64,000 nucleotides of DNA, taken from an uncultured Candidatus Berkelbacteria bacterium. GTDB lineage: Bacteria; Patescibacteriota; UBA1384; UBA12157; JAENIV01. Location: the NCBI GenBank assembly GCA_963698075.1, contig OY969116.1, forward strand, positions 189,492 through 253,491. Direction: 5' to 3'. Below are positions 1,821 to 32,664 of this stretch, piece after piece. Numbering within the stretch: position 1 is the stretch's first letter; each line of letters starts with the position of its first letter. A program made the position numbers and the translations under genes. The notes beneath the pieces were generated by a model that had not been told where the DNA came from, ran no database searches, and saw only the letters and a list, made by a program, of their open reading frames with translations.

Positions 1821-2534
1821 ATGAAAATATTTAATTGGCTTTCAAGCAAAAAAGACCGACAAACTTCAAGCGGTGGCAATATTACTGCCAAAAAGGTTTT
1901 AGATTTTGCTACAACATACGAGGAACTAAAACCATATTTTGCTCTCTTTGTGTATTATTTTAAGTCTGTATTGGACAGCGAAAAAGAAATTGAACAGAAA
2001 GTAAGAGAAATTCAGACCAAGACACAGCAAAATCTAAAAGAAGACCAATTATTTAAGGAATTATGGATATTACGATATGTTTGTTTATTTGTATGGTTTT
2101 TTGATCTTAAACCACCAAAAAATAAAACGGAACTTTCTGATGAGCTTTTGGTTATCAATAGCGCACTCAAAAGTGTTCTGAAAGAAAATAATAAGTTGGA
2201 CTACCTGCCTTGGCTTAAAAATGGATTGTCCGAATTTGCTGACGGAGAATTAACTTTTAATAACCTAAAAGGTTTTAGGAAAAACTTTTCAGACAAATTG
2301 GCGGACAAGATTCCGCATATTGCGTTTGATTGCACAGAAGGTAGATTGGGCGGTGAATTACACGATTTTGTTATTGAGTTGGTTATGACAACAATCCAAG
2401 AAGATCAGAAAGTTTTTAGTATGAGTGATGAAAATACTTTGACAGAGGAAGAAGCTCAAAATATCAAAAGTGCAATTATGGAAATGAGCGAAGATAGACA
2501 CAAAACGGCAGAAGATTTTATGAATTCTCTCTAA
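1821..2534 (+). CDS. hypothetical protein (237 aa)
   Basis: ORF 17 nt after the previous gene; no recognisable motif. Confidence 0.5.
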   Translation: MKIFNWLSSKKDRQTSSGGNITAKKVLDFATTYEELKPYFALFVYYFKSVLDSEKEIEQKVREIQTKTQQNLKEDQLFKELWILRYVCLFVWFFDLKPPKNKTELSDELLVINSALKSVLKENNKLDYLPWLKNGLSEFADGELTFNNLKGFRKNFSDKLADKIPHIAFDCTEGRLGGELHDFVIELVMTTIQEDQKVFSMSDENTLTEEEAQNIKSAIMEMSEDRHKTAEDFMNSL

Positions 2535-8873: not shown

Positions 8874-8921
8874 AAATCTCCTAACAACTTACCATAGCAT
8901 CTAACCGAACGGCCGTCAAGA

Positions 8922-12383: not shown

Positions 12384-14297
12384 CTATTTAGACCTTAATT
12401 TTGCTTGAAATTGATCTTCGACCTTCGAAATAACGTTATTAATTATCTCTCGAGTTTCAGTTTCTGCCAGTGGTTTCTTCATCCCTTGAAGCCAAACATG
12501 GAAGGCAAGATTCTTCGTCCCATTTTTAAATAAAAATTCGTCGAATATTTCAACTAAAAGAATCTTATCGTCAGTTGATTTAATCACTTTAGCAACTTTA
12601 TCCGACCCAATCGCATCTTTGACCACAAAGGCTAGATCGCGGACAGTAGGCGCAAATTGGGAGATCGGCTGATACTTGTTTTGAGAAATCTTAAGATTAT
12701 ATTTTTGCGGCTTGATTTTAATTTCACCAACATCAACAAGAACATATATTATTGGTCGGCGGATTTTGTATAAATTAAGGACGTTTTGGGGAACTTTTTG
12801 AGTCTTTTTTTTGACTCCTAAAAACTCCAGTCGCATCTTAAGATTGATATCATCTTTGTCGGTGGTGGCAATGCCAAGTTGCCATCTCTCGGTGTTCGAG
12901 GTAAAAACTTTCTCAATTTCAAAAATATTGATTTCCGGCGCCCAAGGATTTTTCGCCATGGTAGACAAAAGCGACGGTAAGATAGAAGGTCGCAAATATT
13001 GGGTTTCCGGCGACAGAGGATTGGCAACTTCAACGCAATCTGCGATTTCAGTTTCCAAAGCCTCAATTTTATCTCGCTCGGCAAAACTATAGGAATAAAT
13101 TTCCGTGAAATTAAAATCCGCTAAATAATCCTTAATATATTCCCTCTTTTGAAATTCTTCATTTTCTGTTTGTGACCCGCCTGCCGTCGAGGCAGGTTTG
13201 ATGCTTTGGATTTGAGATTTTCTAATGTTGTTGTATCCATACGATCTCGCAATTTCTTCGGCTAAATCTTGCCAAATTTTAACGTCGTAGGCACGATAAG
13301 ATGGGACGGTCACGACGTTATCTTTTACTTCAAAACCTAATCGCTTAAGATATTCATCAGCAGTTTCTAAAGTGACATCCGTGCCGAGCAATTTATTGAC
13401 TCGATCAATATCAAACTCAATTTTGTTAGACTTTAGATTTTCTGACTTTATATCAACTAAATCGCCAATTTTAGCGTTTGGACAGGATTCTTTGATCATC
13501 GTTGCCGCCATATCGATGCCTAAAATAGTTCCTTCGAAATCAACTCCTCGTTCGTATCGATAGGAGGCATCGGTAACATGATTAAGATATTTTGAGGTTT
13601 TTCTTATGAATATTGGGTCAAAGATGGCGCCTTGTAAAACGATGGTTTTAGTCTTTTCATCAACTTCGGATTTTATTCCGCCCATAATACCAGCGAGATC
13701 ATAGATTTTTTTATTATCTTCAATAATAATGGCGCCGTCGTCTAAAACGCGATTTTGACCGTCCAAAGTCATTACCTCTTCGCCCTTTTTTGCTTGGCGA
13801 ATCCGCATTAGACCATTTTTGATTTTGTCGTAATCAAAGGCGTGCAGCGGTTGACCGGTAGCCACCATCACATAGTTTGTAATATCAACAATATTATTAA
13901 TCGGCCGAAAACCATATGTTGCCAAACGTTCTTGAACCTCTTTTAAAGACTTCCCTATCTTGATATTATCGATAATTCGCGCCGTAAACCTTCGACAAAT
14001 TTCCGGCTTTTCAATTTTAATATCAATATTTTTCTCAATCTTTTCTGTTTTAAGTTGCAGTTTTAAGTTTTGCGTTTTAAGTTTTAAGTTATATAATGCA
14101 GCTATTTCTCTCGCGATTCCTAAAATCGAAAGGCAGTCTCCCCTATTCGGTGTAATTTCTAAATCAAGCACATAATCATCGCCTATTTTTTCAACCGATT
14201 CGACTTCATGTCCAAACAAACTTAAATCCTCCGCCAGCTGCTCTGGGGTTTTATCAATCTCGACATAGTCTTTTAGCCAGTTATAAGAAATTTTCAT
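12384..14297 (-). CDS. pheT: phenylalanyl-tRNA synthetase beta subunit
   Basis: 637-aa ORF with an N-terminal tRNA-binding-like region and B3/4 and B5-like regions; located next to pheS. Contains a low-complexity KL repeat encoded by a GTTTTAAGTT tandem repeat at 14041-14100. Confidence 0.8.
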   Translation of the reverse strand: MKISYNWLKDYVEIDKTPEQLAEDLSLFGHEVESVEKIGDDYVLDLEITPNRGDCLSILGIAREIAALYNLKLKTQNLKLQLKTEKIEKNIDIKIEKPEICRRFTARIIDNIKIGKSLKEVQERLATYGFRPINNIVDITNYVMVATGQPLHAFDYDKIKNGLMRIRQAKKGEEVMTLDGQNRVLDDGAIIIEDNKKIYDLAGIMGGIKSEVDEKTKTIVLQGAIFDPIFIRKTSKYLNHVTDASYRYERGVDFEGTILGIDMAATMIKESCPNAKIGDLVDIKSENLKSNKIEFDIDRVNKLLGTDVTLETADEYLKRLGFEVKDNVVTVPSYRAYDVKIWQDLAEEIARSYGYNNIRKSQIQSIKPASTAGGSQTENEEFQKREYIKDYLADFNFTEIYSYSFAERDKIEALETEIADCVEVANPLSPETQYLRPSILPSLLSTMAKNPWAPEINIFEIEKVFTSNTERWQLGIATTDKDDINLKMRLEFLGVKKKTQKVPQNVLNLYKIRRPIIYVLVDVGEIKIKPQKYNLKISQNKYQPISQFAPTVRDLAFVVKDAIGSDKVAKVIKSTDDKILLVEIFDEFLFKNGTKNLAFHVWLQGMKKPLAETETREIINNVISKVEDQFQAKLRSK

Positions 14298-18527: not shown

Positions 18528-18974
18528 TTACTTGGTTTGGGCTTTTTTGGCTGATTTCTCTTTGGTAGAATTTTTTGACTTTTCTTTGGGGACATTTTTG
18601 TCCTTTTTGACTGGTTCTTTTATTTCGATTGGCTCACCGGCCGCTAATTTCATTAAAACCATTTCAGCGCTATCACCGAGTCGTGGACCTAATTTATAAA
18701 CGTGAATAAAACCGCTCTTAGTTTTGGCAAATCTGGGGACTAAGACTTCAAATATCTTCTTAACGGCTTTTTTATCAAAAAAATAACCCAAAAGCTGCCT
18801 TCTAGCCGCCAGATTATTTTTTTTGGCGTAAATGATTAGTCGCTCAAGGATGGGTTTAACTTCTCGCGCCTTGGCGGCCGTGGTTTTGATTTCTTCATAT
18901 AAAACTAGGGAGGTGGCTAAATTCCTCAAAAGATTCTTTCGGTGATTATCTTTACGTGAAAGTGAATTAGGCAT
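18528..18974 (-). CDS. rplQ: ribosomal protein L17
   Basis: N-terminal RKDNHRKNLLRNLATSL; follows rpoA. Confidence 0.85.
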   Translation of the reverse strand: MPNSLSRKDNHRKNLLRNLATSLVLYEEIKTTAAKAREVKPILERLIIYAKKNNLAARRQLLGYFFDKKAVKKIFEVLVPRFAKTKSGFIHVYKLGPRLGDSAEMVLMKLAAGEPIEIKEPVKKDKNVPKEKSKNSTKEKSAKKAQTK

Positions 18975-18991
18975 TTTTGCTTAATGTAAAC

Positions 18992-19774
18992 TTATTTTTT
19001 TGCTGATTTTTTCGCGGGTTTTCTGGTTGCTTTTTTAGTCACTTTTACATGTCTAACCGGTTTTACTGGCACGGCAACTTCTTGGCACGCTTGATCAACC
19101 AAATTAAAATGTTCAACTAAAATTTTCGCCGCACTACCTAAGGCAACTTCTGGATCAACCGAACCATCAGTGGTAATTTCCATGGTCAGTTTATCAAAAT
19201 CTGTTTCTGCCCCAACGCGAGTATTTTCAATTTCATAGTGGACTTTTTTAACCGGGGTAAAAATCGAATCAACTGCAATTGTCCCAATAGGAAGTTTTTC
19301 ATCTTTCCGTTTCTCCACTGGAACATAACCCCGACCCTTGGCAACAGTGATGGCCATGGTTAATTTCCCGGTTTTGGTAAGCGTCGCCAAATACGTTTCC
19401 TTATTAACGACTTCGCAGGCGCCGCTTTCTTCAAAATCTTTGGCCGTCACTTCTTTTGGCCCGCGGGCGGATAATTTCAACGTTATTGGCTCGCTTGAAT
19501 TAAACTTGAAGCGTAGGGTTTTTAAATTTAGAATGATTTCGACGACGTCCTCTTCGACTCCCGGCAAGGTGGTAAATTGATGACTAGCGCCCTCAATGCG
19601 GCAGGAAATAATCGCCGCTCCTTCCAAAGAAGAAAGAAGCACTCGTCGAAGGGAATTTCCGACAGTTACCCCATAGCCTGGCGATAACGGTTCAATGATA
19701 AAAGTTCCTCGGTTGTTCACTTTCTCGAGAGTCTTAATTTGAATGAGACTCGTTTCTGGTAAAATATAATCCAT
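18992..19774 (-). CDS. rpoA: RNA polymerase alpha subunit (short; CTD apparently absent)
   Basis: GYGVTVGNSLRRVLLSSLEGAAI alpha NTD motif; start at MDYILPETS. Confidence 0.85.
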   Translation of the reverse strand: MDYILPETSLIQIKTLEKVNNRGTFIIEPLSPGYGVTVGNSLRRVLLSSLEGAAIISCRIEGASHQFTTLPGVEEDVVEIILNLKTLRFKFNSSEPITLKLSARGPKEVTAKDFEESGACEVVNKETYLATLTKTGKLTMAITVAKGRGYVPVEKRKDEKLPIGTIAVDSIFTPVKKVHYEIENTRVGAETDFDKLTMEITTDGSVDPEVALGSAAKILVEHFNLVDQACQEVAVPVKPVRHVKVTKKATRKPAKKSAKK

Positions 19775-19808
19775 GTTTCTCCCTATGCCACGCTCACCGT
19801 GACCGGGC

Positions 19809-19828
19809 GGCCCCGCCAAAGGCGGGGC
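19809..19828 (-). promoter_or_regulatory. GC hairpin between rpsD and rpoA (attenuator-like)
   Basis: GCCCCGCC-AAA-GGCGGGGC hairpin just upstream of the rpoA RBS GGGAGA. Confidence 0.35.
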
Positions 19829-19845
19829 TTAGCCTTTAATAATAT

Positions 19846-20433
19846 TTAGCGACTATAAAATTCTATTATTAATTGCTCATCTAAATCGGTTTCAATTTCC
19901 GTTCTAAGCGGCTCGCGTAAAACCTCGGCAGAAGTTTTTTTAACATCGAGTTTTAGCCATTTAGGCACGGTTATTTTTTGAATCTCTACGGATTTGCGAC
20001 ATTTGATGATATCTTTGGGCTTAACGCGCATCGAGGGAATATTGGTAATTTTATCGTTAATTGTAAAATGGCGGTGGCCAACAAACTGTCTGGCTTGAGC
20101 TCGAGATGACGCCCAGCCTAAGCGGTAAACAACGTTATCTAATCGTTCTTCTAATAAACGCAGCAAAACCTCCCCCGTGGCACTTTGGGAACGGGACGCC
20201 TCGCGAAAAGTTTTGGCAAATTGACGTTCGCGCAAACCATATTCTGCCTTCGCTTTTTGCTTTTCCAATAATTGCAGACCGTATTCAGATTTTCTAAGCG
20301 TCCCGGTTTTTGCTCCTTGCGAGCCAGGACGATAATTGCGACGAGTCAGGGCACATTTAGGAGAGGTGCAGCGAGCACCTTTAAGAAAAAGTTTGGTTCC
20401 ATGTTGACGGCACTGACGACAAACATCTGCCAT
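19846..20433 (-). CDS. rpsD: ribosomal protein S4
   Basis: N-terminal Cys cluster CRQCRQ...C..C and a C-terminal S4 domain. Confidence 0.9.
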   Translation of the reverse strand: MADVCRQCRQHGTKLFLKGARCTSPKCALTRRNYRPGSQGAKTGTLRKSEYGLQLLEKQKAKAEYGLRERQFAKTFREASRSQSATGEVLLRLLEERLDNVVYRLGWASSRAQARQFVGHRHFTINDKITNIPSMRVKPKDIIKCRKSVEIQKITVPKWLKLDVKKTSAEVLREPLRTEIETDLDEQLIIEFYSR

Positions 20434-20819
20434 TAGACTCTCCTTATCTTTTTTGGCCGAGTGCCATTATGGGGTATTGGGGTTATATCGCGAATACTGG
20501 TCACCCTAATTCCCTGACCACCAATCGCCCGGACGGCTGATTCTCGACCAGTGCCGACGCCGGAGACTTTGACCAACGCCTCTTTGATAGCGAATTTGCG
20601 AGCTTTTTCAAGAGCTTTACGAACCGTCATTTGAGCGGCAAAGGGGGTCGCTTTTTTTGTTCCAGCAAAACCGCTCGAACCCGCCGTCGCCCAAGAAATG
20701 GTATTACCGTTTATATCAGTAATGGTCACAATACAATTATTAAAAGAGGATTGAATATAAATCATTGCTTTAGCAACTTCTTTTAAGGTTTTTTTCTTTT
20801 TTTTGATTCGTTTAGCCAT
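20433..20819 (-). CDS. rpsK: ribosomal protein S11
   Basis: ATAGSSGFAGTKKATPFAAQ. Confidence 0.9.
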   Translation of the reverse strand: MAKRIKKKKKTLKEVAKAMIYIQSSFNNCIVTITDINGNTISWATAGSSGFAGTKKATPFAAQMTVRKALEKARKFAIKEALVKVSGVGTGRESAVRAIGGQGIRVTSIRDITPIPHNGTRPKKIRRV

Positions 20820-20828
20820 ATGATCTCT

Positions 20829-21212
20829 TTAGGTTTTTTCAGCCGCTTTCTTTCGTCCCGAACCGACAGTCACTCTTTTACCACGTTTAGTCCGAGCATT
20901 AGTTCGGGTTCTCTGGCCTCTGACTGGTAGATTACGGGTATGACGTAGCCCTCGATAAGTGTTAATTTCTTTTAAACGCTTAATATTTTGACTGATCTCC
21001 ATTCGTAAATCGCCCTCAACCTTAATTTGAGCCACAATTTCTCGGATTTTTTCGATCTCATGTTCGCTTAAATCAGCGACTTTTGTATCTACTTTGACCC
21101 CAGCCTCTTGGCAAATTTTCCGGGCCAATGGCACGCCAATGCCTTTGATATAAGCTAAGGAGTAAATTATATGTTTATTATCGGGGATATTAACCCCGGC
21201 AATTCTCGCCAT
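20829..21212 (-). CDS. rpsM: ribosomal protein S13
   Basis: [26 protein letters not shown]. Confidence 0.9.
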
Positions 21213-22494: not shown

Positions 22495-24480
22495 TTGTCT
22501 AAACAAAATCGCCAAGTAACCCCAAGTGAATTCGAGGCTAAATGTACTAATCCTGGAGGAGAAGTCAGCCCAGAGGATCTGGCGAGACTTCTTCGAGAGC
22601 ATTTCCAGCTTGAGGGTGAAATTCAACATTTCTATCAGACTGATGTTTACTACGACACGACTTCATCACCAGATCTGCCGAGATTCCACCTAGGGGGGTC
22701 TGGTTTGAGTCTCCGTGTCCGCAGTTTCAGGGGTGGTGATTCGTATGAACTGACAGCTAAAAGGAATATCTCCGAGATCGGCGGCGTTTTCGTCAGAGAA
22801 GAAGTCCCGGCGATTATTCCGCTTTCTACGGATATCTCTTACCCGATTAACGACCAGAGGCCGAAGCTTCCACCACTCCTTATGATAAGAAAGTACATCA
22901 GCGGCAAGCTTTCACCTGTGGTTATGGTCGAGAATCATCGCATGGTCATCCGTGTTGAGATCGAGGGTCTCAAGATGAAGATCTGTCATGATACGGTTAC
23001 ATATCAAGATTTCCTGACGAACTTACAAGTACCAGATCACGAAATCGAGATTGAATTGCGGGGCCTAAATGCTCAACTGATGGAAGATGTTGTCAGACTT
23101 GTCAGGGAGAAATTCCCTAAACTGGTGGCTCAGCGCGAAGATAAGTATCGGCGCGCACTCGAGCTACTTTTCGGAGAACCGAAACATCGTTCACTTTCTT
23201 ACGTGCCACCGAGCTTTGAGATCGTCAGTCACGACGATATCGAAAGATGTCTTACCCAGGCACCTGAACCATATCGCCCACTGCTGGAGAAGCTCGTTCA
23301 AGATACCACAAGACGTTTAAGCTACAAGTCCCAACTCTCGGTCCTACCAATGCCAACTGATGTCAGACTGGCCCTTTGGCAGGAACGAACAATCGCCAAC
23401 CTGATTGAAGCCAACCCTTTCCTCTATTCTAGCGATCCAGTTCTGGCCGACAGCTGCTTTATCGCCGTTGATCTGCCAGAATCGCCTTTGAGATTCTTTG
23501 AGCATACTCGGGCTCAACATTCAATTGATGTTGCGACCTGGGCGATGACTTTGGCTCGCAAGTGCGGATTCGGAACAGATTCGATCGTTTATGTCGGTTG
23601 TGCTGGCTTAAGACATGACCTTGGACATCCCGCCCTTTGTCACAGTGGCGAAATCGTCGCTAAAGATGTGTGTGGGCTCGATCACGAAGAGAGAACCTTA
23701 CAACTAGTGGATGCAGATGCACCGATCCTATCTCGATACGACTTGGACATCGAGAAACTCAAAGCTATTCTCCGCGAAGAAGACATCGGTCAGATCCTGG
23801 CTTTGGCTGATACTCTTGCATATCTTATTCGAGATGGACAAGCCTGCGAGCGACCGCTTGATCCATCTGTTCCGCGAACAATTGCCGAACATTTTGATTA
23901 TGATTCATCTTCCAACGAGATTATCTTCGACGATGAGCTCATCAGTGCCCTTCAGACAATGCTTGATTTCCGCTTTGAGATGTTTCGGACTGTCTATTAC
24001 CATCCCTATTCCCGAATCGAAGAAGAAATGCAACAGAAAGCCATCAGATGGGCTCTCAGCCAAGGGGTGATAATCATCAGCGACCTTCTCGAGGGAGATG
24101 ATCCGACCCTTCTTAAGAAAATGGCTGAAATGGCAGCCAATGATCCGAAGCTCAAGCAACTGGTCGCCGGCTTTTTCCCGGATTACTGCGCTGTCTATCA
24201 CTACCGACCCCACATCACCTACAAAGGTGCCATTGACGCCGCCAGCATGGATAAAGCCTTAGTTGATGCCGGCTTTGACCCACTTGACTATATCATTAGT
24301 CTTCCAGACACGCGGGCTCATCGAAAAACCATCCGCGGGCGTCGCCTAAATGGCGAATCGGTTGAGCTAAGTGCCCGGAACGTCCGCAATTTCCATCAGT
24401 ATGACTCACAAACAATCATTGCTTTTGCTCCAACGCTTAAGCAACAAGATATCCTTCGAACTTTTCTTCACCCCCGCTAG
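22495..24480 (+). CDS. CYTH-like (triphosphate tunnel) N-terminal domain fused to a dGTPase/SAMHD1-type HD phosphohydrolase domain
   Basis: N-terminal SEFEAK (ExExK), LSLRVRS, ELTAKR and HEIEIEL (acidic C-terminal strand) follow the CYTH pattern. C-terminal RAQHSIDVA...LRHDLGHPALCH...DHEE matches the dNTP-triphosphohydrolase HD motifs. RBS GGAGG. Confidence 0.55.
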   Translation: MSKQNRQVTPSEFEAKCTNPGGEVSPEDLARLLREHFQLEGEIQHFYQTDVYYDTTSSPDLPRFHLGGSGLSLRVRSFRGGDSYELTAKRNISEIGGVFVREEVPAIIPLSTDISYPINDQRPKLPPLLMIRKYISGKLSPVVMVENHRMVIRVEIEGLKMKICHDTVTYQDFLTNLQVPDHEIEIELRGLNAQLMEDVVRLVREKFPKLVAQREDKYRRALELLFGEPKHRSLSYVPPSFEIVSHDDIERCLTQAPEPYRPLLEKLVQDTTRRLSYKSQLSVLPMPTDVRLALWQERTIANLIEANPFLYSSDPVLADSCFIAVDLPESPLRFFEHTRAQHSIDVATWAMTLARKCGFGTDSIVYVGCAGLRHDLGHPALCHSGEIVAKDVCGLDHEERTLQLVDADAPILSRYDLDIEKLKAILREEDIGQILALADTLAYLIRDGQACERPLDPSVPRTIAEHFDYDSSSNEIIFDDELISALQTMLDFRFEMFRTVYYHPYSRIEEEMQQKAIRWALSQGVIIISDLLEGDDPTLLKKMAEMAANDPKLKQLVAGFFPDYCAVYHYRPHITYKGAIDAASMDKALVDAGFDPLDYIISLPDTRAHRKTIRGRRLNGESVELSARNVRNFHQYDSQTIIAFAPTLKQQDILRTFLHPR

Positions 24481-24497: not shown

Positions 24498-25247
24498 TTA
24501 TGAGATCTTAGTTAATATCTCAAAACCGTCGCTGGTTACAGCTACCGTATGCTCGAAATGCGCCGCCAGCGAACCATCTAAAGTCGCCACGGTCCAGCCG
24601 TCATTTAAAATTTTAACATGCCAATCGCCGGCGGCAACCATTGGTTCAAACGCTAAAACCATGCCAACTTTCAGAACCGGGCCAGCGCCCTCTCTGCCAA
24701 AATTGGGAATCGAGGGGTTTTCTTGAAGCTCTTGGCCGATGCCATGACCTGCCAGATCGCGAATGGCGCTATAACCGGCGCCTTCAATAATTTTTTGAAT
24801 CCGATGACAAACATCACCTAAATGGATTCCCGGTTTGATAATATCTAATCCTTCATCTAATGATTTCTTGGTAATTCTCAAAAGTTCTTTCTTTGGATAA
24901 TCGATCCGGCCCACCGGAACGGTTAAAGCAGTGTCGGTATGAAAACCCTTATATAAAATTCCCATGTCGATTCCCACCAAATCATTCTCGCGCAAAATTC
25001 GACCCGACGGGATACCGTGAACGACTTCAGAATTGACTGAGGTACAAATCGAAGCTGGGAATCCTTCATGACCCAAAAATGAGGCCTGAGCGCCACTATT
25101 TTTGATTTCTTTCGCCGCCAGAATATCCAATTCTTTGGTCGTCATTCCTGCCTTAACATTTTGAGCCACTAGATTTAAAATTCGGGCGGCAATTCGGCCT
25201 CCCTCCCGCATAATTTCGATTTCTTTTCCGGTTTTAATCGTAATCAT
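24498..25247 (-). CDS. map: methionine aminopeptidase type I
   Basis: Pita-bread fold metal-ligand pattern (D...D...H...E...E), e.g. FHTDTALTV and HGIGQELQE. Confidence 0.9.
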   Translation of the reverse strand: MITIKTGKEIEIMREGGRIAARILNLVAQNVKAGMTTKELDILAAKEIKNSGAQASFLGHEGFPASICTSVNSEVVHGIPSGRILRENDLVGIDMGILYKGFHTDTALTVPVGRIDYPKKELLRITKKSLDEGLDIIKPGIHLGDVCHRIQKIIEGAGYSAIRDLAGHGIGQELQENPSIPNFGREGAGPVLKVGMVLAFEPMVAAGDWHVKILNDGWTVATLDGSLAAHFEHTVAVTSDGFEILTKIS

Positions 25248-25291
25248 CTAGCAACTTTCAAAGACCACTCAATTAAGTTATAATTACCTTA

Positions 25292-27076
25292 ATGATAACG
25301 AAACAAGAAGAAAAATTCAATCACGTTACTGCTTCAGAAATATTTAATTTGCTGAATGGCATTCGCTGTGACAAAAAAACATTTCTGCCATTAGCTCTTT
25401 CTAATATTGAAGAGTTAAAGGATTTCTTTAAAGACGATAAAGATAAAAGTACTAACAATTATTTACTTGCTAATTATTCTCCAGGTGAAAAAATAGTAGA
25501 GTCAGGCAAGATAGAGGATAATTATTTAAAATCTCATAAAAACTTTTCTTATGCCGAGGTCCCACTTGGTTTTATAGTTAAGGGCGATGTAATAGTAAGT
25601 AAAGGTGGCAAGGCAACAAAAAGGTTATCACAGGGTGATTTTATCGGCTTGTTTGAAACGAGCGACTGGATTTTAACAGGCAAAAAGCGTGAAATTGGCG
25701 AATGGAGTTTAACTAATGATTCTCCGACTAAATTGATTTATTTTGGAGCTACAAGTTTGCAAGGTGATGATACTAATCACAGAAAACTCAAAAATTATTT
25801 GGTTGATATTGCGAAGAAAGATTATGTGCCTCAACCAATAACAACCCTCCCTCTTTTAGATTGGGTTGCTAACCATACAACTAAATCACGCTTAAACGAT
25901 TATGCAATAATTGCTCATACCCATCTATTACCAAACAATTTCCCTTTCTTTCGACAATTATCTTACCTCGTGAGCTTTAATAGAATGTTTGTTTTAGAAA
26001 AGCCATATTCAACAGTCAAAAGAACTTTCAACGATCTTGTGCAATCAGGCTGCGAAGTTATCCCAGTCAATATGGAACCAGGTTTTCCTTATGAATATTC
26101 AATTAAAAAGAGCTTGGATATACTCTGGGCAAAGGTTGTCGAAGAACAAAAGAAAACTGGTTTTAAGAAACTTCTAATTATTGATGACGGCGGTGATTTA
26201 TGGCTTTCTATTCCTTGGAATGATTTGGAAGGAGTTTCAATTGCTGGAGCTGAACAAACTCAACGCGGTATAACTCGTATAAAGAATAGCAATCATCATC
26301 TCCCTCCTATTATTAGTGTTGCGTCGAGCGGTGTTAAAAAGATTGTAGAGTCCATTTTCATCGGCAGATCAGTAGTTAACAAACTTAAGGAATTAAGGAT
26401 CCTTAACCAGTCGAGAAGAATTGGAATTATGGGTATGGGAAGTATTGGTCAAGCTGCGACTCAAAGACTAAATGAATTAGGCTATAAGCCATTATTTTAT
26501 GATTATGATTACAAGAAAGACAGTGAAATGTCCAACTATCGTTCATCGATCGATGTGTTACTTAATCAGTCGGATATAATTATTGGCACTACAGGTAACG
26601 ATTCGCTAAAAGGTATCCCATTCGAAAGAGTTCGCGGCCGAAAAATATTAACAAGTGCTTCATCTGCAGATGTAGAGTTCGCCTGCTTGTTGAAAATTGC
26701 CGAATCTACAGCTTCTCCGTTTGGAACACGCTATGTAAAGATAAACGATAACTTAAGTTTTGATATCTTAAATGGTGGTTATCCTATTAACTTTGACCGC
26801 CAAGGGAATGCTACACCAAGCGAAGACATCGTCTTAACTAGATGTCTGATGTATACTGGTGCAATGCAATCATCTAAGTTAATAGAAAGTGGCGTTCAAG
26901 AAGGAGCAATCTACAACCTTGATATTATTACTCAACAAAAACTTTTAGAAAAATGGATTGAAGACAAAAATAAGACGGGTCATAGTCCCGATATCAAAGA
27001 GGATGAAATAGATAACATCATCAAGCACTCAAACATTGAAGAATTTAAGAATATGGAAAGCGTCTGGGAAGACTAA
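25292..27076 (+). CDS. cyclic-nucleotide-binding-like domain fused to an S-adenosylhomocysteine hydrolase (AdoHcyase)-like domain
   Basis: Residues about 70-160, GEKIVESGKIED...GDVIVSKGG...GDFIGLFE, are a cNMP-binding beta-barrel pattern. The middle and C-terminus, LLIIDDGGDLW, IGIMGMGSIGQAA, IIIGTTGNDS and ILTSASSADVE, are collinear with the AdoHcyase DDGGD, GxGxxG, TTG and GHFD segments. The GHFD His is replaced. Confidence 0.5.
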   Translation: MITKQEEKFNHVTASEIFNLLNGIRCDKKTFLPLALSNIEELKDFFKDDKDKSTNNYLLANYSPGEKIVESGKIEDNYLKSHKNFSYAEVPLGFIVKGDVIVSKGGKATKRLSQGDFIGLFETSDWILTGKKREIGEWSLTNDSPTKLIYFGATSLQGDDTNHRKLKNYLVDIAKKDYVPQPITTLPLLDWVANHTTKSRLNDYAIIAHTHLLPNNFPFFRQLSYLVSFNRMFVLEKPYSTVKRTFNDLVQSGCEVIPVNMEPGFPYEYSIKKSLDILWAKVVEEQKKTGFKKLLIIDDGGDLWLSIPWNDLEGVSIAGAEQTQRGITRIKNSNHHLPPIISVASSGVKKIVESIFIGRSVVNKLKELRILNQSRRIGIMGMGSIGQAATQRLNELGYKPLFYDYDYKKDSEMSNYRSSIDVLLNQSDIIIGTTGNDSLKGIPFERVRGRKILTSASSADVEFACLLKIAESTASPFGTRYVKINDNLSFDILNGGYPINFDRQGNATPSEDIVLTRCLMYTGAMQSSKLIESGVQEGAIYNLDIITQQKLLEKWIEDKNKTGHSPDIKEDEIDNIIKHSNIEEFKNMESVWED

Positions 27077-27120: not shown

Positions 27121-27153
27121 AAAAAACGGCATGCCACTTGCCGCTTTTTTTTG
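27121..27153. terminator. bidirectional rho-independent terminator
   Basis: AAAAAA-CGGCA-TGCCACT-TGCCG-CTTTTTTTT, between convergent genes. Confidence 0.75.
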
Positions 27154-27195: not shown

Positions 27196-27837
27196 CTAAA
27201 GAACTTTCTCAATTTCCTTCCAGACTTCCTCAATCATCGGCTCTCCATCGATGTTAATTAATTGACCTCTTTTTTGGTAGTACGAAATTAAAGGGGCGGT
27301 TTGTTTTTCGTAAGTCTCGATTCTCTTCGCCAAAACCTCTGGTTCATCATCATTCCTGAGAATTAATTTTCCACCACAGCTATCGCAGGTTACCTTCCCC
27401 TCGCCGACTGCATCGCGAAAAATCTTCCCGCATTTTTGGCAGATTCGTCTTTTGTGCATCCGCGCGATTAAAGATTCTGGCCTGACGCGGAGATTTAGAA
27501 TTTTAAGATTATCGAGGTTTTTCTCTTTTAAAAAAATATCCAAGTGGGCGGCTTGAAAAACCGTTCGCGGATAACCATCAAAAACGATTCCCTCATTAAT
27601 ATTAATTTCGCTCAGCTTTTTGGCGACGAATTTTTCTACCAAATCGTCGCTGACTAATTGGCCGCCCTCGATTGACTTGGAAAATTCCTCGCCCAAAGCC
27701 GTTTTTTTTCGGATTTCCTCGCGCATAAGATCACCAGTACCAAAATAAGTCAGGCCTAAAGATTGGGCCAGCTTTTTTGCCTGGGTGCCTTTGCCCGAAC
27801 CCGGCGGCCCTAAAAGAATAAAATTAGTAAATTTCAT
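27196..27837 (-). CDS. adk: adenylate kinase (with zinc lid)
   Basis: P-loop GPPGSGKGTQA; lid CxxC...CxxC (CQKCG...CDSCG). Confidence 0.9.
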   Translation of the reverse strand: MKFTNFILLGPPGSGKGTQAKKLAQSLGLTYFGTGDLMREEIRKKTALGEEFSKSIEGGQLVSDDLVEKFVAKKLSEININEGIVFDGYPRTVFQAAHLDIFLKEKNLDNLKILNLRVRPESLIARMHKRRICQKCGKIFRDAVGEGKVTCDSCGGKLILRNDDEPEVLAKRIETYEKQTAPLISYYQKRGQLINIDGEPMIEEVWKEIEKVL

Positions 27838-28478
27838 GATGATGTTCCCGTCGGCGTTGGGCTGATGCTGGGACTAATTGAGGGGCTGGGAGAAGGCGAG
27901 CTCGCATTAGAATCAACTACCTTATCTATTAACCATATATTGTTTTCCTGGGTTACTGTAAAGACTTTTACCTTGGGGCCCGTATAAATTAAATTTACTT
28001 TAACCGTGACGGTATTTTCATCGATCTTTTGGGTTGAAATTATCTCGTAGCTTCGTGCTTTCTCCGCTGAACCCAGAAAGTAATTCAGTTTCGCGCTTAA
28101 ATCGCTTAGATCTTTGCCATTAGCATCTTTAGTTGTTTCTAACTTCGCTTGGGCGACAATGGTCAAGAGGTCCCGCGCTTTATTGGCTTGAATTAGGCCG
28201 TCACTAGTGCTTGAAGATTTTAACCAAAAGTCTAGAAAGTCGGTGATGGTTTTTTCCGATTTTATTTTCCATATGGCCACGGTCACTTCCACTGAAGGCG
28301 AAGGCATGGCCTGACCCTTGGTGCCGATAATATAATTGGCATAATACCAATAGCCGCCACCGCCGATTATAAGAATGACGATTGTCACAATCAACCACTT
28401 AAGAATCCCGCCCCCTGACGACTCACCCGGTGTTTCGGAGCCATTCGCTCCCGGATTTTCCAAAACGCTCTGATTCAA
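27834..28478 (-). CDS. membrane-anchored hypothetical protein with Ser/Pro-rich tail
   Basis: N-terminal TM and a C-terminal SPSPSPSISPSISPTPTG low-complexity tail. Confidence 0.5.
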   Translation of the reverse strand: MNQSVLENPGANGSETPGESSGGGILKWLIVTIVILIIGGGGYWYYANYIIGTKGQAMPSPSVEVTVAIWKIKSEKTITDFLDFWLKSSSTSDGLIQANKARDLLTIVAQAKLETTKDANGKDLSDLSAKLNYFLGSAEKARSYEIISTQKIDENTVTVKVNLIYTGPKVKVFTVTQENNIWLIDKVVDSNASSPSPSPSISPSISPTPTGTSS

Positions 28479-28490
28479 AATATCTCCTTA

Positions 28491-29180
28491 TTAAATCTTT
28501 TTAATCGATTGGATCGCCCAAATCCCTTTTTCACCTTTTGTTATCGGCTGAGTAAGGGTGATTAAGAAGTTGCCGCCTTCGGAACTGGCCTGGACCGTGG
28601 CCGTGCCATTGGCGTCATCACGGTTCTTGATAGTGTAAGTATCAGTCACTTTTAAACCGTAGACGTTCGGCGCATCCGCTCTGGCAGTTTCATCGGGAGC
28701 CAGGCGCCATTGGGTTTTGCCTTGGTCGACTTGGTTTTGAATGGCTGTCGCCTTGGTGTTATCGATCATAAACTCGACTTGACCATTTTCCGGAATGTAA
28801 AGTACCTGGCCTGCTTGAATTTTATCAGCATCCGTAATCCCGTTGGCTTCGGAAAGGTCCGCCAAGGTAGTCCCTTGTTTTTGGGCAATGCCAAAAAGAG
28901 TCTCTTTGGCTTGGATGGTATAGGTTTTATTCGGGCTTGATGGTTTTTCCGTCGCCGGCCGTGAAACCGCGGTCGAAACCTGCGGCCCCGGCGTAGCCGC
29001 CGCCTCCGTTGAGGCGGTCGCCGGAGATTTTGTACTCTCGACTCCTGCTTTCTTCGAGTTGGTCGAACGGCTTTTGGCAGCAAAAAAAGTCGTGGTTGAA
29101 GCCAAAATTGCTACTAATATAACCAATCCATAAAATAAAATTTTCATTTGCTTGTTCATCATTCTCCTTACTGGAGCCAT
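28491..29180 (-). CDS. LysM-domain cell-surface protein
   Basis: YTIQAKETLFGIAQKQGTTLADLSEANGI...GQVLYIP is a LysM motif. N-terminal signal anchor. Confidence 0.65.
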   Translation of the reverse strand: MAPVRRMMNKQMKILFYGLVILVAILASTTTFFAAKSRSTNSKKAGVESTKSPATASTEAAATPGPQVSTAVSRPATEKPSSPNKTYTIQAKETLFGIAQKQGTTLADLSEANGITDADKIQAGQVLYIPENGQVEFMIDNTKATAIQNQVDQGKTQWRLAPDETARADAPNVYGLKVTDTYTIKNRDDANGTATVQASSEGGNFLITLTQPITKGEKGIWAIQSIKKI

Positions 29181-30151
29181 CCTAAAATTTGAATCGCTTT
29201 ACCCATGGCTTTTTGGCTCGAATCCTTTAGATTTTCGATAAAAATTTGGCCATTGGTTTTATCGTCGATACTCTGGTTGTACTGAGCCACCAAGAAACAC
29301 AAAAACTTTTCATCGGCACTCGAGAATATGAAATTCGCCTGGCCACCGCTAAAGTCAGCCACTTTATTCATCTTATCATCAGCGATTTCAATTGTCTCGA
29401 GACTACCTTCGTGGCTGCCAATGTTTCTCAGAGAGAAAACAATTTTCCGATCTGAAACCCATGAAAGCCAATCAACGATTTTGCCTTCAAAACTTTTTAG
29501 AGTAGAAACATCTTTAGAACTAACATTGACAATTTTAATCTGGCCCTCAGTTCCCGAAGAAGCGGCAAAAGCCACTTTTGATCCTAGCGTGTCCCAGGCC
29601 GGAGATCTGATTTCTGAGGAACTATTAAATAATTTTTGCTGGTCGGAACCGGTATTTTGCTCTATATAAAGGGTGTAGCCGTAATTTTCCTCCGTGTTGG
29701 AAAATTTGATATAGGCGATCTTTTCGGCATCTTGGGTAATTGACCAGTAAAGCGGGCGGCTGAAAGTGCTCTGGAGCGTCTCTTTGGCCCCACTGCCAAG
29801 ATTAATCAAGATTAGTTTGCCCGAGCCTGCCTTAGGGTCTTTATTGGTAATCGCCAGAATCTTTTGATTGCTTGCCGCCAGGTTAGAAACCTTAATTAAT
29901 TTTTCTGATTCATCAGCGTCAGTAAAGATTTTTTTTAACTTGCCGCCTAAATCTTTCATCCAGATTTCTTTAGCATTACCCGAAATCAAGTAAACGAAGG
30001 CGGCATCTTTTCCGCTTGCCTGAATCAGTGGATTGGATGTCCCGGCTTGAGGCTCAGACGCCGTTTGATTAAGATAGGTTTTATTGACATACCAAGCTAA
30101 CCCACCAATCACAAGCAAAATCAAAATAGTAGTGATTGTTTTTTGGGCCAT
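29168..30151 (-). CDS. TolB-like beta-propeller (PD40 repeat) exported protein
   Basis: N-terminal anchor and repeated PD40-like segments. Confidence 0.45.
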   Translation of the reverse strand: MAQKTITTILILLVIGGLAWYVNKTYLNQTASEPQAGTSNPLIQASGKDAAFVYLISGNAKEIWMKDLGGKLKKIFTDADESEKLIKVSNLAASNQKILAITNKDPKAGSGKLILINLGSGAKETLQSTFSRPLYWSITQDAEKIAYIKFSNTEENYGYTLYIEQNTGSDQQKLFNSSSEIRSPAWDTLGSKVAFAASSGTEGQIKIVNVSSKDVSTLKSFEGKIVDWLSWVSDRKIVFSLRNIGSHEGSLETIEIADDKMNKVADFSGGQANFIFSSADEKFLCFLVAQYNQSIDDKTNGQIFIENLKDSSQKAMGKAIQILGWLQ

Positions 30152-31320: not shown

Positions 31321-32664
31321 TTAATAAGTCTCATACTGGCGCATCAGAAGCTGCGCCTGGATTTGCCTCATCGTTTCAATTATAACAGAAACCATAATTA
31401 AAACACCAGTGCCACCAATAACCAAAGTGTTAACCTTCGTAATCGCCTGAACAATAAACGGCAATACCGCAATTACTCCCAAGAAAACGGCCCCGGTGAG
31501 ATTTACCCGAGAAATAATCCGTGAAAGATACCCTGCCGTCTCCTGGCCCGGCCTGACCCCAGGGATAAAGCCGCCTTGTTTTTGTAAGTTTTCGGCAATC
31601 TGGGTCGGTTTGAGGATAATCCCGGTATAGAAAAAGGTAAAAAGGATTACCAAAATAAAGTAGGCAATCCCATAAAACCAGTTATTGGTAAAAAGGTTGG
31701 CCACCCAGGTAGCGGCCTGGGCAAGCCACTCCGAACGCGCTTGAGAGAGGAATTTGGCCCCGACGCCCGGGAAAAGCATAATTGACATCGCAAAAATGAT
31801 TGGGATAACCCCAGCCGTATTGACCCGAATCGGTAAATGGGTGTCCACCCCGCCGTATGCCTTCAATCCACGAATGCGCCTGGCGTAGGAAACGGGAATT
31901 TGCCGCCGGCCTTCATTGACGATGACGATTAAAATCACCACCGCCAGGGCGATTAAACCAAAGATGATTAGACCAATAATTTTCGTCGTATCTAAAACCG
32001 CGAGGGTATTGCGAACCTGGGCCGGCAGGCCCGCCACAATCCCTAACGTAATAATTAAAGAAACGCCGTTACCGATCCCATTTTCGGAAATGAGCTCGCC
32101 GATCCACATGAGAAGTATCGTTCCAGCGGTAATCGAGATAAGCATTACCGCCAACTGTATCGGCGTCCAAGAAATGACAATTTGCTGATTGCGAAGCAAA
32201 ACCAACATGCTGTAAGACTGAATCAACGCCAATGGCACGGTTAGGATCCTCGTCCAATAATTAATCTTTTGCTGGCCGCTCTCCCCTTCTTTTTGGAGCT
32301 CCTCTAAGGAAGGAATGACCATCGTCAAGAGCTGGACAATAATTGAGGAAGTAATGTAAGGACCAACGCCCATCATAATAATCGAAAAGTTCTCCATTGC
32401 CCCGCCGGAAAACATGTTCAAAAGCCCGAAAATTTGGTTCCGGCCAAAAAAATCTCTCAGTTGAACAATATCGACGCCGGGTAAAGGAATGTGGGCCAAA
32501 ACCCTGGCGATCAGTAACAGGGCGACGGCATATAAAACTCGCCGTCTTAAATCCGGCAAAGTAAAAATCTGTTTTAAAGTCTCCCAAAAACGCATAAAAA
32601 CAACCTTTCTTTTTAGGTCTATTTCTATCTTATCACTTGCTCCGAAATAGTCAATAAATCCCAA
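31321..32664 (-). CDS. secY: preprotein translocase SecY
   Basis: 447 aa, 10 TM, in the canonical position after rplO in the spc operon. Confidence 0.9.
   Translation of the reverse strand: MGFIDYFGASDKIEIDLKRKVVFMRFWETLKQIFTLPDLRRRVLYAVALLLIARVLAHIPLPGVDIVQLRDFFGRNQIFGLLNMFSGGAMENFSIIMMGVGPYITSSIIVQLLTMVIPSLEELQKEGESGQQKINYWTRILTVPLALIQSYSMLVLLRNQQIVISWTPIQLAVMLISITAGTILLMWIGELISENGIGNGVSLIITLGIVAGLPAQVRNTLAVLDTTKIIGLIIFGLIALAVVILIVIVNEGRRQIPVSYARRIRGLKAYGGVDTHLPIRVNTAGVIPIIFAMSIMLFPGVGAKFLSQARSEWLAQAATWVANLFTNNWFYGIAYFILVILFTFFYTGIILKPTQIAENLQKQGGFIPGVRPGQETAGYLSRIISRVNLTGAVFLGVIAVLPFIVQAITKVNTLVIGGTGVLIMVSVIIETMRQIQAQLLMRQYETY

Follow-up and report, generated by a model that had tools for sequence, protein, structure and literature searches.

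What is a protein that joins a cyclic-nucleotide-binding-domain (CNBD) fold to a module resembling S-adenosylhomocysteine (SAH) hydrolase (SAHH) doing inside a cluster of ribosomal protein genes? The question is raised by a gene of the 64-kb window, the whole stretch of DNA analysed here, which starts with ATG in the list of open reading frames, covers positions 25292..27076 of the plus strand (stop codon included) and encodes a protein of 594 amino acids. Pfam matches identify its neighbours as map (methionine aminopeptidase; 24498..25247, minus strand; Peptidase_M24, E 4.4e-47) and adk (adenylate kinase; 27196..27837, minus strand; ADK, E 5.9e-44). Since these two genes, SecY upstream and S13/S11/S4/RpoA/L17 downstream are all encoded on the minus strand, the gene lies within the spc-alpha region in opposite orientation, the position that a first-pass annotation of this DNA had assigned to it. 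It is divergent from map, with a 44-bp spacer, and convergent with adk.

The gene is a real, conserved one and no chance open reading frame, because 166 homologues of the 594-aa protein were found, mostly of full length and with 45-88% identity, and the mean column identity amounts to 54% in a 56-sequence alignment of the CNBD branch (alignment A1). The AF2 model of the protein has a pLDDT of 91.6 and a pTM of 0.91. The motifs quoted in the first-pass annotation, GEKIVESGKIED (residues 65-76), GDFIGLFE (115-122), LLIIDDGGDLW (294-304), IGIMGMGSIGQAA (378-390), IIIGTTGNDS (429-438) and ILTSASSADVE (451-461), are all present in the translation in that order, and the proposed union of a cyclic-nucleotide-binding-type domain with an SAHH-like NAD module describes a real two-part protein. 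This portion of the earlier interpretation stands, the native composition that it ascribed to the gene does not, and its verdict of a possibly inactivated enzyme calls for nuance.

The SAHH-like module (residues 185-594; 25844..27073, plus strand) is complete. It consists of a substrate-binding domain, an NAD-binding Rossmann domain and a C-terminal tail that ends in the conserved Trp592, and thus has the same two-domain fold as SAHH (PDB 1LI4, 6GBN, 3X2F), with which it aligns over ~360-430 residues. In SAHH, Tyr430 caps the NAD of the adjacent subunit, a role that Trp592 may have here. The Rossmann domain (roughly residues 360-505; 26369..26806, plus strand; Pfam 2-Hacid_dh_C, E 6.9e-9, residues 373-431) comprises the segment G381-x-G383-x-x-G386 (26432..26449, plus strand) as well as D404, G435 and N500. 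Across the superfamily to which the protein belongs, G381, G383, G386, G435 and N500 are invariant, and D404, the acidic NAD-ribose residue at the end of beta-2, is present in 22 of 23 CNBD-less relatives. The SAHH-type NAD signature (GxGxxG, the beta-2 acid and Asn346) is therefore intact, with G381, G383, G386, D404 and N500 each occurring in 56/56 sequences of A1. Identity to SAHH is only 15-19%, and the scores remain far below the thresholds of the curated adenosylhomocysteinase families (TIGR00936, 21.4 vs 497.6 bits; NF004005, 34.2 vs 275 bits); Pfam AdoHcyase gave no match to the full protein even at E<=10. Judged by its sequence, the 594-aa protein is no canonical SAHH.

Equivalences to SAHH residues (human numbering) were drawn from HMMER alignments and assessed in A1 and in a sampled set of 8 CNBD-branch and 23 CNBD-less sequences (A4). 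H211 (His55), E321 (Glu155), T323 (Thr157), K349 (Lys186), E353 (Asp190) and N500 (Asn346) are found in all 56 sequences of A1 and are invariant in A4, where a single CNBD-less sequence has a gap at the position of H211. D298 (Asp130) is likewise invariant in A4 and occurs in 52/56 sequences of A1; D299 (Asp131) occurs in 55/56. The catalytic set formed by His55, Asp131, Lys186 and Asp190 is thus preserved, the last of these through a conservative Asp to Glu change, and the equivalents of Asp303 and Glu305 are conserved as well. A second group of residues has been exchanged: Q322 (56/56) stands for Glu156, S458 (56/56) for His301, and T508 (42/56, otherwise E/V/A/S) for His353. L213, N215 and N216 or S216 occupy the positions of Thr57, Glu59 and Thr60, the adenine-recognition residues of SAHH. 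Thr158/159 are replaced by Gln/Arg and Asn191 by Ser, and the protein has an extra N-terminal CNBD of ~180 residues. The superfamily also possesses invariant residues of its own that are absent from SAHH, namely K237 (SAHH Asn80) and S455/S457/S458, and further D502 (55/56 in A1, 22/23 in the CNBD-less relatives). Together with Q322, these residues are predicted to line the pocket.

The conservation check on the catalytic Lys, Asp and His residues that the first-pass annotation had called for accordingly confirms the loss of a histidine, that of His301. The loss of both His301 and His353 and the presence of Gln for Glu156 favour the suggestion of inactivation, but the near-invariance of the Lys186, Asp131, His55 and Asp190 equivalents and of the NAD-binding residues, which extends to the far larger CNBD-less part of the superfamily, speaks against it. 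A pattern in which the ribose-oxidation set is kept and the histidines are lost fits an altered chemistry or substrate better than decay.

The N-terminal sensor module (residues 1-176; 25292..25819, plus strand) displays the constituents of the CNBD fold: N-terminal helices (residues 14-22 and 33-47), an eight-strand beta-barrel (57-151) with the helix of the phosphate-binding cassette (PBC), and C-terminal helices (153-176) corresponding to the B and C helices. Pfam cNMP_binding matched neither the full protein at E<=10 nor residues 1-183 at E<=0.01. When the family profile was compared with PDB sequences, the E-values for the sensor module were weak (0.02-1.4), yet the matches were exclusively to CNBD proteins. 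Alignment with HMMER to the Plasmodium PKA-R CNB delineates a modified PBC region (residues 115-140, GDFIGLFETSDWILTGKKREIGEWSL; 25634..25711, plus strand), in which the PBC Gly is retained as G119 and the phosphate-binding Arg as R133, the Glu has given way to L120, and insertions of four and three residues are present. The canonical (S/T)-A after the Arg is missing, the position following R133 being variable (Q/E/N/H). As a whole, the cassette is near-invariant among the 56 sequences, since G119, E122, G136 and W138 occur in all of them and L120, T123 and R133 in 55. The absence of the canonical Glu and (S/T)-A, together with the two insertions, makes the binding of a cyclic nucleotide by this cassette putative only. 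Epac-type CNBDs bind cAMP although they lack the PBC Glu.

The same departures from the canonical cassette set the protein apart from known CNBD-regulated enzymes, such as the cAMP-gated lysine acetyltransferase Rv0998 of M. tuberculosis (4AVA), the CNBD-GGDEF protein 5H5O, the CNBD-EAL protein Bd1971 and PycTIR (8JSK). No CNBD-regulated enzyme with an SAHH-like output domain was found in the literature searched, nor anything relevant on CNBD-SAHH fusions or on SAHH in Patescibacteria. In the neighbourhoods of the homologue loci, no nucleotide cyclase recurs near the homologue genes. A CYTH+HD gene (possible cyclase-type fold) is located 0.8 kb upstream of the gene in the window; it was rejected as a partner of the CNBD, as it is not recurrent at other homologue loci. 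Sensor and SAHH-like module are connected by a conserved linker, D-x-VPQP (residues 177-182; 25820..25837, plus strand). Of its residues, D177, V179, P180 and P182 each reach 90% conservation or more in A1, and P180, Q181 and P182 do so in alignment A2, where D177 and V179 never vary. The matching of the CNBD-less relatives, and of L030, in which a methyltransferase takes the place of the CNBD, begins at residue ~185.

Proteins with the CNBD make up a minor branch, found mostly in CPR bacteria, of an extensive and unnamed superfamily of SAHH-like proteins. It comprises 878 clusters at E<=1e-30, at ~25-30% identity, and its members mostly have no CNBD; NCBI labels some of them 'NAD(P)-dependent oxidoreductase', and 'adenosylhomocysteinase' is also used by annotation pipelines. 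SAH hydrolase is among the most conserved enzymes and governs the methylation potential of the cell. Through the CNBD form, more than 800 clusters of SAHH-fold enzymes come into view that share a fixed non-SAHH signature (Glu156 replaced by Gln, His301 by Ser and Asn80 by Lys). As a widespread sister family that has kept the NAD/Lys/Asp redox core and rewired the substrate pocket, they would bring a new reaction or regulatory layer to SAM/SAH biology; in CPR bacteria, the family has moreover gained a ligand-sensing CNBD and undergone repeated fusion to one methyltransferase.

A functional clue comes from the relatives, which are repeatedly associated with one MTS/NPPY-type methyltransferase (MTS Pfam, E 3e-16; motif IV FNLPYH). 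Among NCBIfam models it matches PRK14968 'putative methyltransferase' best (E 6.5e-21); in its MTS domain and its motif IV it resembles amino-methyltransferases of the HemK/Mtq2/RsmC type, but it scores below every equivalog cut-off. The methyltransferase gene is adjacent to and upstream of the SAHH-like gene at four loci (L001, L004, L017, L021), the enzyme is fused N-terminally in P0120/L006 and in L030, and C-terminally at L027-L029, and further fusions are found in P0121, P0132, P0136 and P0141. At L001, a Parcubacteria locus (LFCR01000002.1), the methyltransferase gene occupies 5265-5990 and the SAHH-like gene 6001-7773. In the reverse test, the SAHH-like gene was adjacent or fused at 12 of 18 informative metagenome loci seeded with the methyltransferase, and at least 26 contigs, matched by their lengths, carry both genes. 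These repeated fusions and adjacencies probably link the SAHH-like proteins to the chemistry of methylation by-products; formed several times independently, the fusions provide an unusually clean functional link, one open to test because enzyme and partner can be co-expressed. The link is not universal, because the window's own subclade shows no such partner. A tblastn search of the 64-kb window gave no match, by which a partner hidden elsewhere in it was rejected, and, with contigs matched by length, no methyltransferase was seen on the 929,420-bp contig carrying P0001 among the 120 of 131 matches listed.

As its most likely role, we infer that the gene product works as an NAD-dependent enzyme under ligand control, with SAH or a related nucleoside by-product as its substrate. 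In the form of an SAHH-type cycle on SAH or a close 5'-substituted nucleoside, run by an enzyme of the SAHH fold, we advance this reading tentatively. Its basis is the joining of a CNBD sensor by the conserved linker to a complete two-domain module that has kept the residues for NAD binding and for oxidation of the ribose 3'-OH. The module would carry a tightly bound NAD+ and run a cycle of oxidation, elimination and re-reduction on SAH, or on a close 5'-substituted nucleoside, that SAM-dependent transferases release as a by-product, and its removal would relieve the product inhibition of these enzymes. The CNBD pocket would be filled by a small molecule bearing a phosphate, by default presumed to be a cyclic nucleotide, and the C-helix and linker would relay the occupancy of the pocket to the catalytic cleft, which would open or close in response. 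The connection of this scheme to methylation would be that suggested by the fused or adjacent NPPY-type amino-methyltransferase of other lineages. It is conceivable, although we consider it doubtful, that a second messenger sensed by the CNBD sets the clearance rate of SAH or a relative and thereby controls a dedicated amino-methyltransferase in CPR bacteria. If so, the methyltransferase, possibly a modifier acting at the epigenetic or translational level, would be under second-messenger control in these ultra-small cells. CPR metabolisms are minimal and poorly understood, and whether such proteins recycle SAH is therefore of importance. No SAH, SAM or cyclic-dinucleotide riboswitch was detected in the window or at seven homologue loci.

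SAH itself may not be the substrate, because substitutions affect Glu156, His301, His353 and the residues that contact adenine, and because AgmF, an NAD+-dependent SAHH-like dehydratase of angustmycin biosynthesis, has kept both histidines and loses its activity with either H56A or H299A (PMC8599513). AgmF, which shares 34% identity with the SAHH of M. tuberculosis, lacks a CNBD and is encoded in a biosynthetic cluster (PMC8599513), reuses the tightly bound NAD+/Lys/Asp machinery of a divergent SAHH fold for a different nucleoside reaction; it differs from the family studied here, which has Ser at the second histidine, and sets a precedent for proteins that are SAHH-like but not SAHH. The SAHH-like module could thus perform other NAD-dependent nucleoside chemistry unrelated to SAH removal, such as AgmF-type dehydration, epimerisation, or the cleavage or synthesis of another 5'-substituted nucleoside, with the linked methyltransferase as a second tailoring enzyme of the same small-molecule pathway. 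We regard this as a serious but not a probable alternative. The replacement of all base-contact and 5'-substituent-contact residues next to an intact ribose-oxidation set suits it, as do the superfamily's own residues K237, S455/S457/S458 and D502 and the proof by AgmF that the fold can carry out different reactions. CNBD-less relatives also occur without an MTS methyltransferase, and loci that lack the SAHH-like gene have the methyltransferase fused to a second such domain, an arrangement reminiscent of a tailoring pathway. However, none of the neighbourhoods seen, which are housekeeping or heterogeneous, resembles a biosynthetic gene cluster; the gene stands alone in this genome; and fusion in three different orders is as typical of partners related through a by-product or cofactor as of members of one pathway.

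The eukaryotic AHCYL proteins offer another template. They are much closer in sequence to true SAHH, and their extension is a disordered, phospho-regulated segment. To our knowledge, no hydrolase activity has been reported for AHCYL1 and AHCYL2, in which an SAHH-like body follows an N-terminal regulatory extension. By analogy with these proteins (IRBIT; PDB 3MTG, 3GVP), the protein could be a non-catalytic sensor or regulator that binds NAD and a nucleoside under control of the CNBD, in its case a folded extension, and acts on partners such as the methyltransferase. AHCYL2 is in fact the best PDB sequence-profile match (3gvp, E 1e-10), although only marginally better than the matches to true SAHHs. 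The shared architecture, the loss of Glu156, His301 and His353, and the physical fusion to a methyltransferase, which would suit a regulatory subunit, are in accord with such a pseudoenzyme. What makes it rather unlikely in our view is that the equivalents of Lys186, Asp131, His55 and Asp190, like many polar, family-specific residues, hardly vary across a superfamily at ~25-30% identity, which is expected of catalysis more than of mere binding.

Still less probable is a horizontally acquired component of a conflict or defence system, be it a CNBD-gated, Pycsar-like effector or an accessory of a methylation-based (MADS/R-M-like) system. In the MacSyFinder definition of the MADS preprint, mad6-8 are mandatory, and mad1, mad2 and mad5 count as accessory, because resemblance to R-M components and regulators might produce spurious matches. 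No operon with MAD6, MAD7 and MAD8 was found, and no mad profile matched in the window; the matches of mad2 (methyltransferase) and mad3 (ATPase) profiles in relatives are generic, so that MADS membership was rejected. PADLOC had no match for the protein itself or for the 873-, 527- and 544-aa neighbours in relatives, and neither an adjacent nucleotide cyclase nor a defence-profile match, as expected for Pycsar/CBASS, was found; no cyclase or nuclease recurs beside the CNBD form. Most CNBD-branch neighbourhoods consist of housekeeping genes, the only recurrent neighbours of the CNBD form being the methyltransferase, a TrmB-like gene and gltX. The CNBD form is absent from the viral contigs of IMG/VR and from phage genomes, and conjugative plasmids of Legionella and Simkania carry CNBD-less relatives only; carriage of the CNBD form by phages or plasmids was therefore rejected. 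It is hardly credible that the protein is an ordinary 2-hydroxyacid dehydrogenase of the D-isomer-specific type, the alternative that the first-pass annotation had itself named, or a generic NAD(P)-dependent oxidoreductase: 2-Hacid_dh_C is the sole Pfam match above threshold and some NCBI names point the same way, but no match spanning the NAD-binding and the catalytic domain of these dehydrogenases over their full length was obtained.

The composition of the gene bears on how it came to its present position. With a GC of 0.356 and a GC3 of 0.30, it departs from its adjacent genes (GC 0.42-0.49, GC3 0.42-0.51) in a window whose composition is patchy, a caveat on this argument, as the genes at 1821..2534 (GC 0.33) and 12384..14297 (GC 0.38) are also low in GC. 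The supposed native composition is thereby contradicted. Nor is the idea of a lineage-specific rather than recently acquired gene supported, since the neighbourhood of an 87%-identical orthologue is unrelated, and that orthologue agrees in GC with the genes around it. At none of the other homologue loci examined, that of the 87%-identical orthologue included, was map or adk found beside the gene, and a conserved functional coupling to map/adk or the ribosomal operon was rejected on these grounds. The gene between map and adk is probably a recently acquired, stand-alone copy, and its seat within the ribosomal-protein/secY-adk-map cluster would then be an accident of recent insertion, which corrects the tempting inference from its neighbours.

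A consensus scan placed a promoter-like site, TTCAAA-16-TATAAT, at 25257..25284 (plus strand), its end 7 nt upstream of the ATG. Sites of this kind are no more frequent in the region than expected from shuffling (8 vs 8.7), so the leaderless or near-leaderless mRNA that this site would give is suggested by weak evidence only. Between the gene and adk, a scan revealed a hairpin at 27121..27149 with T-runs on both strands, an 11-pair stem on the minus strand and a 5-pair stem followed by T8 on the plus strand, which from its sequence may be a bidirectional terminator-like element.

The open reading frame proposed in the first-pass annotation between map (24498..25247, minus strand) and adk (27196..27837, minus strand) lies at 25292..27076 on the plus strand, starts with ATG and encodes a protein of 594 amino acids, in whose translation every one of the peptide motifs quoted there is found. 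Since its neighbours map and adk are transcribed from the minus strand, with secY (31321..32664) located upstream and rpsM-rpsK-rpsD-rpoA-rplQ (18528..21212) downstream, all of them identified by Pfam, the gene is positioned antisense inside the spc/alpha region. The protein is conserved: 166 homologues were found, most of them full length and with identities between 45 and 88%, and a 56-sequence family alignment has a mean column identity of 54%.

The assignment of a cyclic-nucleotide-binding domain (CNBD) and an S-adenosylhomocysteine hydrolase (SAHH)-like module is confirmed at the fold level by profiles and by an AlphaFold2 model combined with Foldseek, which establishes the architecture and fold of the protein. 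Its sole Pfam match is to 2-Hacid_dh_C (residues 373-431, E 6.9e-9), a region that is the dinucleotide-binding beta-alpha-beta unit, and its best NCBIfam matches are adenosylhomocysteinase models, which it reaches with 34 bits (cut-off 275) and 21 bits (cut-off 498). When compared with PDB sequences, the single protein is collinear with the SAHH 7r39 across residues 292-547 (E 2.6e-6), while the family profile recovers AHCYL2 (3gvp; residues 196-458 aligned to 51-311, E 1e-10) as well as numerous true SAHHs. The AlphaFold2 model, calculated with the family alignment as input, is very confident (pLDDT 91.6, pTM 0.91), and its 50 best Foldseek matches consist entirely of SAHH and AHCYL chains (E 3e-15 to 2e-12), among them 1LI4, which the first-pass annotation had named for comparison.

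Active-site equivalences were derived from HMMER alignments to real SAHH sequences, and residues were counted in the 56-sequence alignment and in a superfamily alignment; SAHH residues are given in human numbering with their established roles. Kept in 56/56 family members are H211 (His55), E321 (Glu155), T323 (Thr157), K349 (Lys186), N500 (Asn346) and E353 (Asp190, here as Glu), together with the NAD-binding residues G381xG383xxG386, D404 (the NAD-ribose acid) and G435. The acidic pair D298 (Asp130, 52/56) and D299 (Asp131, 55/56) is nearly invariant, as are the equivalents of Asp303 (D460, 54/56) and Glu305 (E462, 56/56). Fixed changes affect Glu156 (Q322), His301 (S458) and Asn80 (K237), each in 56/56 sequences, Thr158/159 (Q324, 55/56; R325, 56/56) and Asn191 (S354); His353 is replaced by T508 in 42/56, and the adenine contacts Thr57/Glu59/Thr60 correspond to L213/N215/N216. 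The protein thus has the redox and NAD core in common with SAHH and differs from it in the residues of the base and 5'-substituent pockets, a combination that argues for a working NAD enzyme with a predicted substrate or reaction other than that of canonical SAHH; the picture is not that of a decaying pseudogene's product. How much the His/Asp/Lys/Asp/His set matters to enzymes with the SAHH fold is illustrated by mutagenesis of AgmF (PMC8599513). The earlier view of a possibly inactivated module was right about the lost His, as His301 and other SAHH residues are changed, but 'inactivated' is too strong a term for a protein that keeps the equivalents of Lys186, Asp131 and His55.

With regard to the sensor domain, no match to Pfam cNMP_binding was found, and a profile built from residues 1-182 matched only CNBD proteins (PKG, PKA-R, CAP) among PDB sequences, weakly (E 0.02-1.4). 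HMMER pairs GDFIGLFETSDW..R..IGDW with the canonical GDYFGELALL..PRAA of the PKA-R CNB domain. The Gly (G119) of the phosphate-binding cassette and the phosphate-binding Arg (R133, 55/56) are retained, whereas the cassette Glu is a Leu (L120, 55/56), extra 4- and 3-residue insertions are present, and the residue following the Arg varies. The cassette is nearly invariant (G119, E122, G136 and W138 in 56/56, T123 in 55/56, D125 in 54/56), and a conserved ligand or interface function of the pocket is therefore likely; a ligand bearing a phosphate is plausible, and a cyclic nucleotide in this role is unproven.

An exhaustive profile search over 1.84 billion cluster representatives yielded 3076 matches, 878 of them at E<=1e-30. 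Only about 17 are full-length CNBD and SAHH-like clusters; most are stand-alone proteins of 400-450 amino acids covering only profile positions ~180-560 with 215-250 bits, far above the 44 bits scored by canonical SAHH. These CNBD-less relatives, whose hosts include Acidobacteria, Pseudomonadota and Legionella, bear automatic names only, have no dedicated Pfam or NCBIfam model, and carry the same active-site signature, Gln322 and Ser458 included (8 CNBD-branch and 23 CNBD-less sequences aligned). By sequence, the CNBD form makes up a minor branch within a large SAHH-like superfamily that is uncharacterised, and, as judged from the record titles of 23 genome loci, it occurs mostly in CPR bacteria (Berkelbacteria, Saccharibacteria, Moranbacteria, Paceibacterota, Parcubacteria, Levyibacteriota). 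The sequences are already public under automatic labels, the family itself is uncharacterised, and our literature searches found no paper on the CNBD-SAHH-like architecture.

Legionella members offer a cultured and tractable entry to the superfamily. On an L. pneumophila plasmid (L062; NZ_CP015948.1, 4596-8287) and in L. yabuuchiae (L059; 1-2902), the stand-alone gene, labelled 'NAD(P)-dependent oxidoreductase', forms a divergent pair with a large gene for a response regulator or hybrid histidine kinase; on Legionella conjugative plasmids its surroundings include toxin-antitoxin modules and two genes with a MazG and a WGR domain, respectively. Another CNBD-less member (locus L061, 3525-9388, plus strand) resides in an apparent operon with a faint CbiQ-like protein, an ABC_tran ATPase, a 483-aa unknown protein and a DUF2332 protein, with SIR2_2 and SMC-like ATPase genes close by. 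In a single case, a 541-kb contig of one CPR genome (L003), a 587-aa caspase-like Peptidase_C14 protein is encoded on the same strand (7761-9524, plus) 5 bp after the CNBD-SAHH-like gene.

The map/adk position and ribosomal context do not recur among the homologue loci compared; the recurrent neighbour is a ~240-aa MTS-family methyltransferase of the NPPY type (FNLPYH; Pfam MTS E 3e-16, NCBIfam PRK14968 E 6.5e-21), related to RsmC, PrmC, Mtq2 and METTL5. It adjoins the homologue upstream on the same strand in L001, L004, L017 and L021, is fused N-terminally in P0120 (locus L006) and in L030, where it takes the place of the CNBD, and is fused C-terminally in L027-L029; further fusions are P0121, P0132, P0136 and P0141. 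In the reverse test, in which 23 metagenome loci were seeded with the methyltransferase, the SAHH-like gene was adjacent or fused in 12 of the 18 informative loci (8 with the CNBD, 4 with a divergent CNBD-less 392-aa form). In loci without it, the methyltransferase was fused to a second methyltransferase domain instead; MTS-type plus Methyltransf_11-type fusions of 406-412 aa occur in this setting in L044 (2849-4069), L046 (5989-7227), L055 (3310-4545) and L048 (342-1577). At least 26 contigs, matched between the two hit lists by identical length, contain both genes. Fusions and adjacency make a strong Rosetta-stone case for a link to SAM-dependent methylation. This link is subclade-specific: the partner is found neither in the 64-kb window nor, among the methyltransferase matches listed, on the 929,420-bp contig with the target protein or the 541-, 391- and 309-kb contigs of close relatives.

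In five loci a TrmB-like gene stands beside the methyltransferase in divergent orientation. Its product, which is ~250 aa long and bears a faint signature of the winged-helix regulator TrmB, is encoded in L001 (4401-5144, minus), L004 (4434-5177, minus), L017, L021, L030, L036, L037 and L041; in the Parcubacteria subclade the gene is divergent from the methyltransferase/SAHH-like pair and is a candidate local regulator. A conserved operon surrounds the CNBD-less form in L047 (2841-9309), L050 and L052. It encodes a 235-aa unknown protein, an ABC/SMC-type ATPase of 405 aa that matches PADLOC mad3 (E 1e-24), the SAHH-like protein of 392 aa, an MTS methyltransferase of 241 aa (the reading frames overlap) and a protein of 873 aa that neither Pfam nor PADLOC recognises (two proteins, of 527 and 544 aa, in L052); it is possibly an undescribed methylation-based system.

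We tentatively favour, at somewhat below an even chance for the reading as a whole, an SAHH-type NAD enzyme that would act on SAH or a related nucleoside under control of the CNBD. Such a protein would bind NAD+ tightly and apply the 3'-oxidation chemistry of SAHH to SAH itself or to a similar 5'-substituted nucleoside from SAM-dependent transferases, and the CNBD may gate domain closure via the conserved D-x-VPQP linker. No SAH or SAM riboswitch was found, which neither supports nor contradicts this mechanism. Nucleoside chemistry of another kind, unrelated to SAH, is a rather doubtful use of the altered pocket, and it is unlikely that the module is a non-catalytic regulator resembling the AHCYL proteins. 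A role in a defence or conflict system is improbable. The partner methyltransferase matches PADLOC mad2 (E 3e-20), described as an N6-adenine methyltransferase in the MADS preprint, the ABC-type ATPase of the CNBD-less operons matches mad3, and CNBD-less relatives reside on conjugative Legionella and Simkania plasmids amid toxin-antitoxin genes and also beside a response-regulator or hybrid-kinase gene; however, PADLOC has no match for the target protein itself, the mandatory MAD6-8 were not detected, and the family is absent from the viral contigs and phage genomes searched. In the same preprint MAD1, MAD2 and MAD5 are accessory, because they are similar to R-M components and widespread regulators. 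A plain dehydrogenase is scarcely credible, as no better match to a 2-hydroxyacid dehydrogenase was seen and SAHH and AHCYL chains fill the Foldseek top 50.

The first-pass inference of a native composition and a lineage-specific gene was not supported. The target has a GC content of 0.356 (GC3 0.30), compared with 0.42-0.49 (GC3 0.42-0.51) for map, adk and other adjacent genes, although it should be noted that the GC content of the window is patchy and two other genes are comparably low. The 87%-identical orthologue P0003 lies elsewhere, with a Zip transporter gene on one side and a PALP enzyme gene on the other, and its GC content of 0.365 fits that of its contig (0.37-0.38). A promoter-like TTCAAA-16-TATAAT ends 7 nt ahead of the target start codon, and the convergent target and adk genes are separated at 27121..27149 by a hairpin that has T-runs on either strand; both elements are consensus matches only. 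Taken together, these features favour the view that the gene was inserted fairly recently and came from a relative of lower GC content. If functional on the minus strand, the hairpin would uncouple adk from map, which would then require a promoter of its own within or next to the 5' end of the target; a promoter-like site is located at 25320..25292 (minus strand).

The secY-adk-map cluster of this genome is broken up at several points. Three genes that do not belong to the classical spc operon lie between secY and adk (27834-30151, minus strand), encoding a 214-aa Ser/Pro-rich protein with a weak DUF4878 match, a LysM-domain protein of 229 aa and a protein of 327 aa without a Pfam match. Between map and the rpsM cluster, this operon contains another insertion on the opposite strand, the second of its kind. 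It comprises a plus-strand gene (22495-24480, GC 0.49) for a 661-aa protein with CYTH (triphosphate-tunnel/CyaB-like), HD and HD_assoc_2 (dGTPase/SAMHD1-like) domains and, ahead of it, a 146-aa open reading frame (21933-22373, plus) with no Pfam match and an unusually high GC content (0.55; GC3 0.64); the same CYTH-HD/map/target order is found in an independent assembly (L035). Across the window, with a mean GC content of 0.43, the composition is markedly patchy, at 0.30-0.36 over 1-4000, where a tRNA gene is located (156-229), and 0.57 at 50001-51000. The contig of the 87%-identical orthologue carries a group I catalytic intron (L033, 14178-14401, minus strand; Rfam RF00028, 86 bits).
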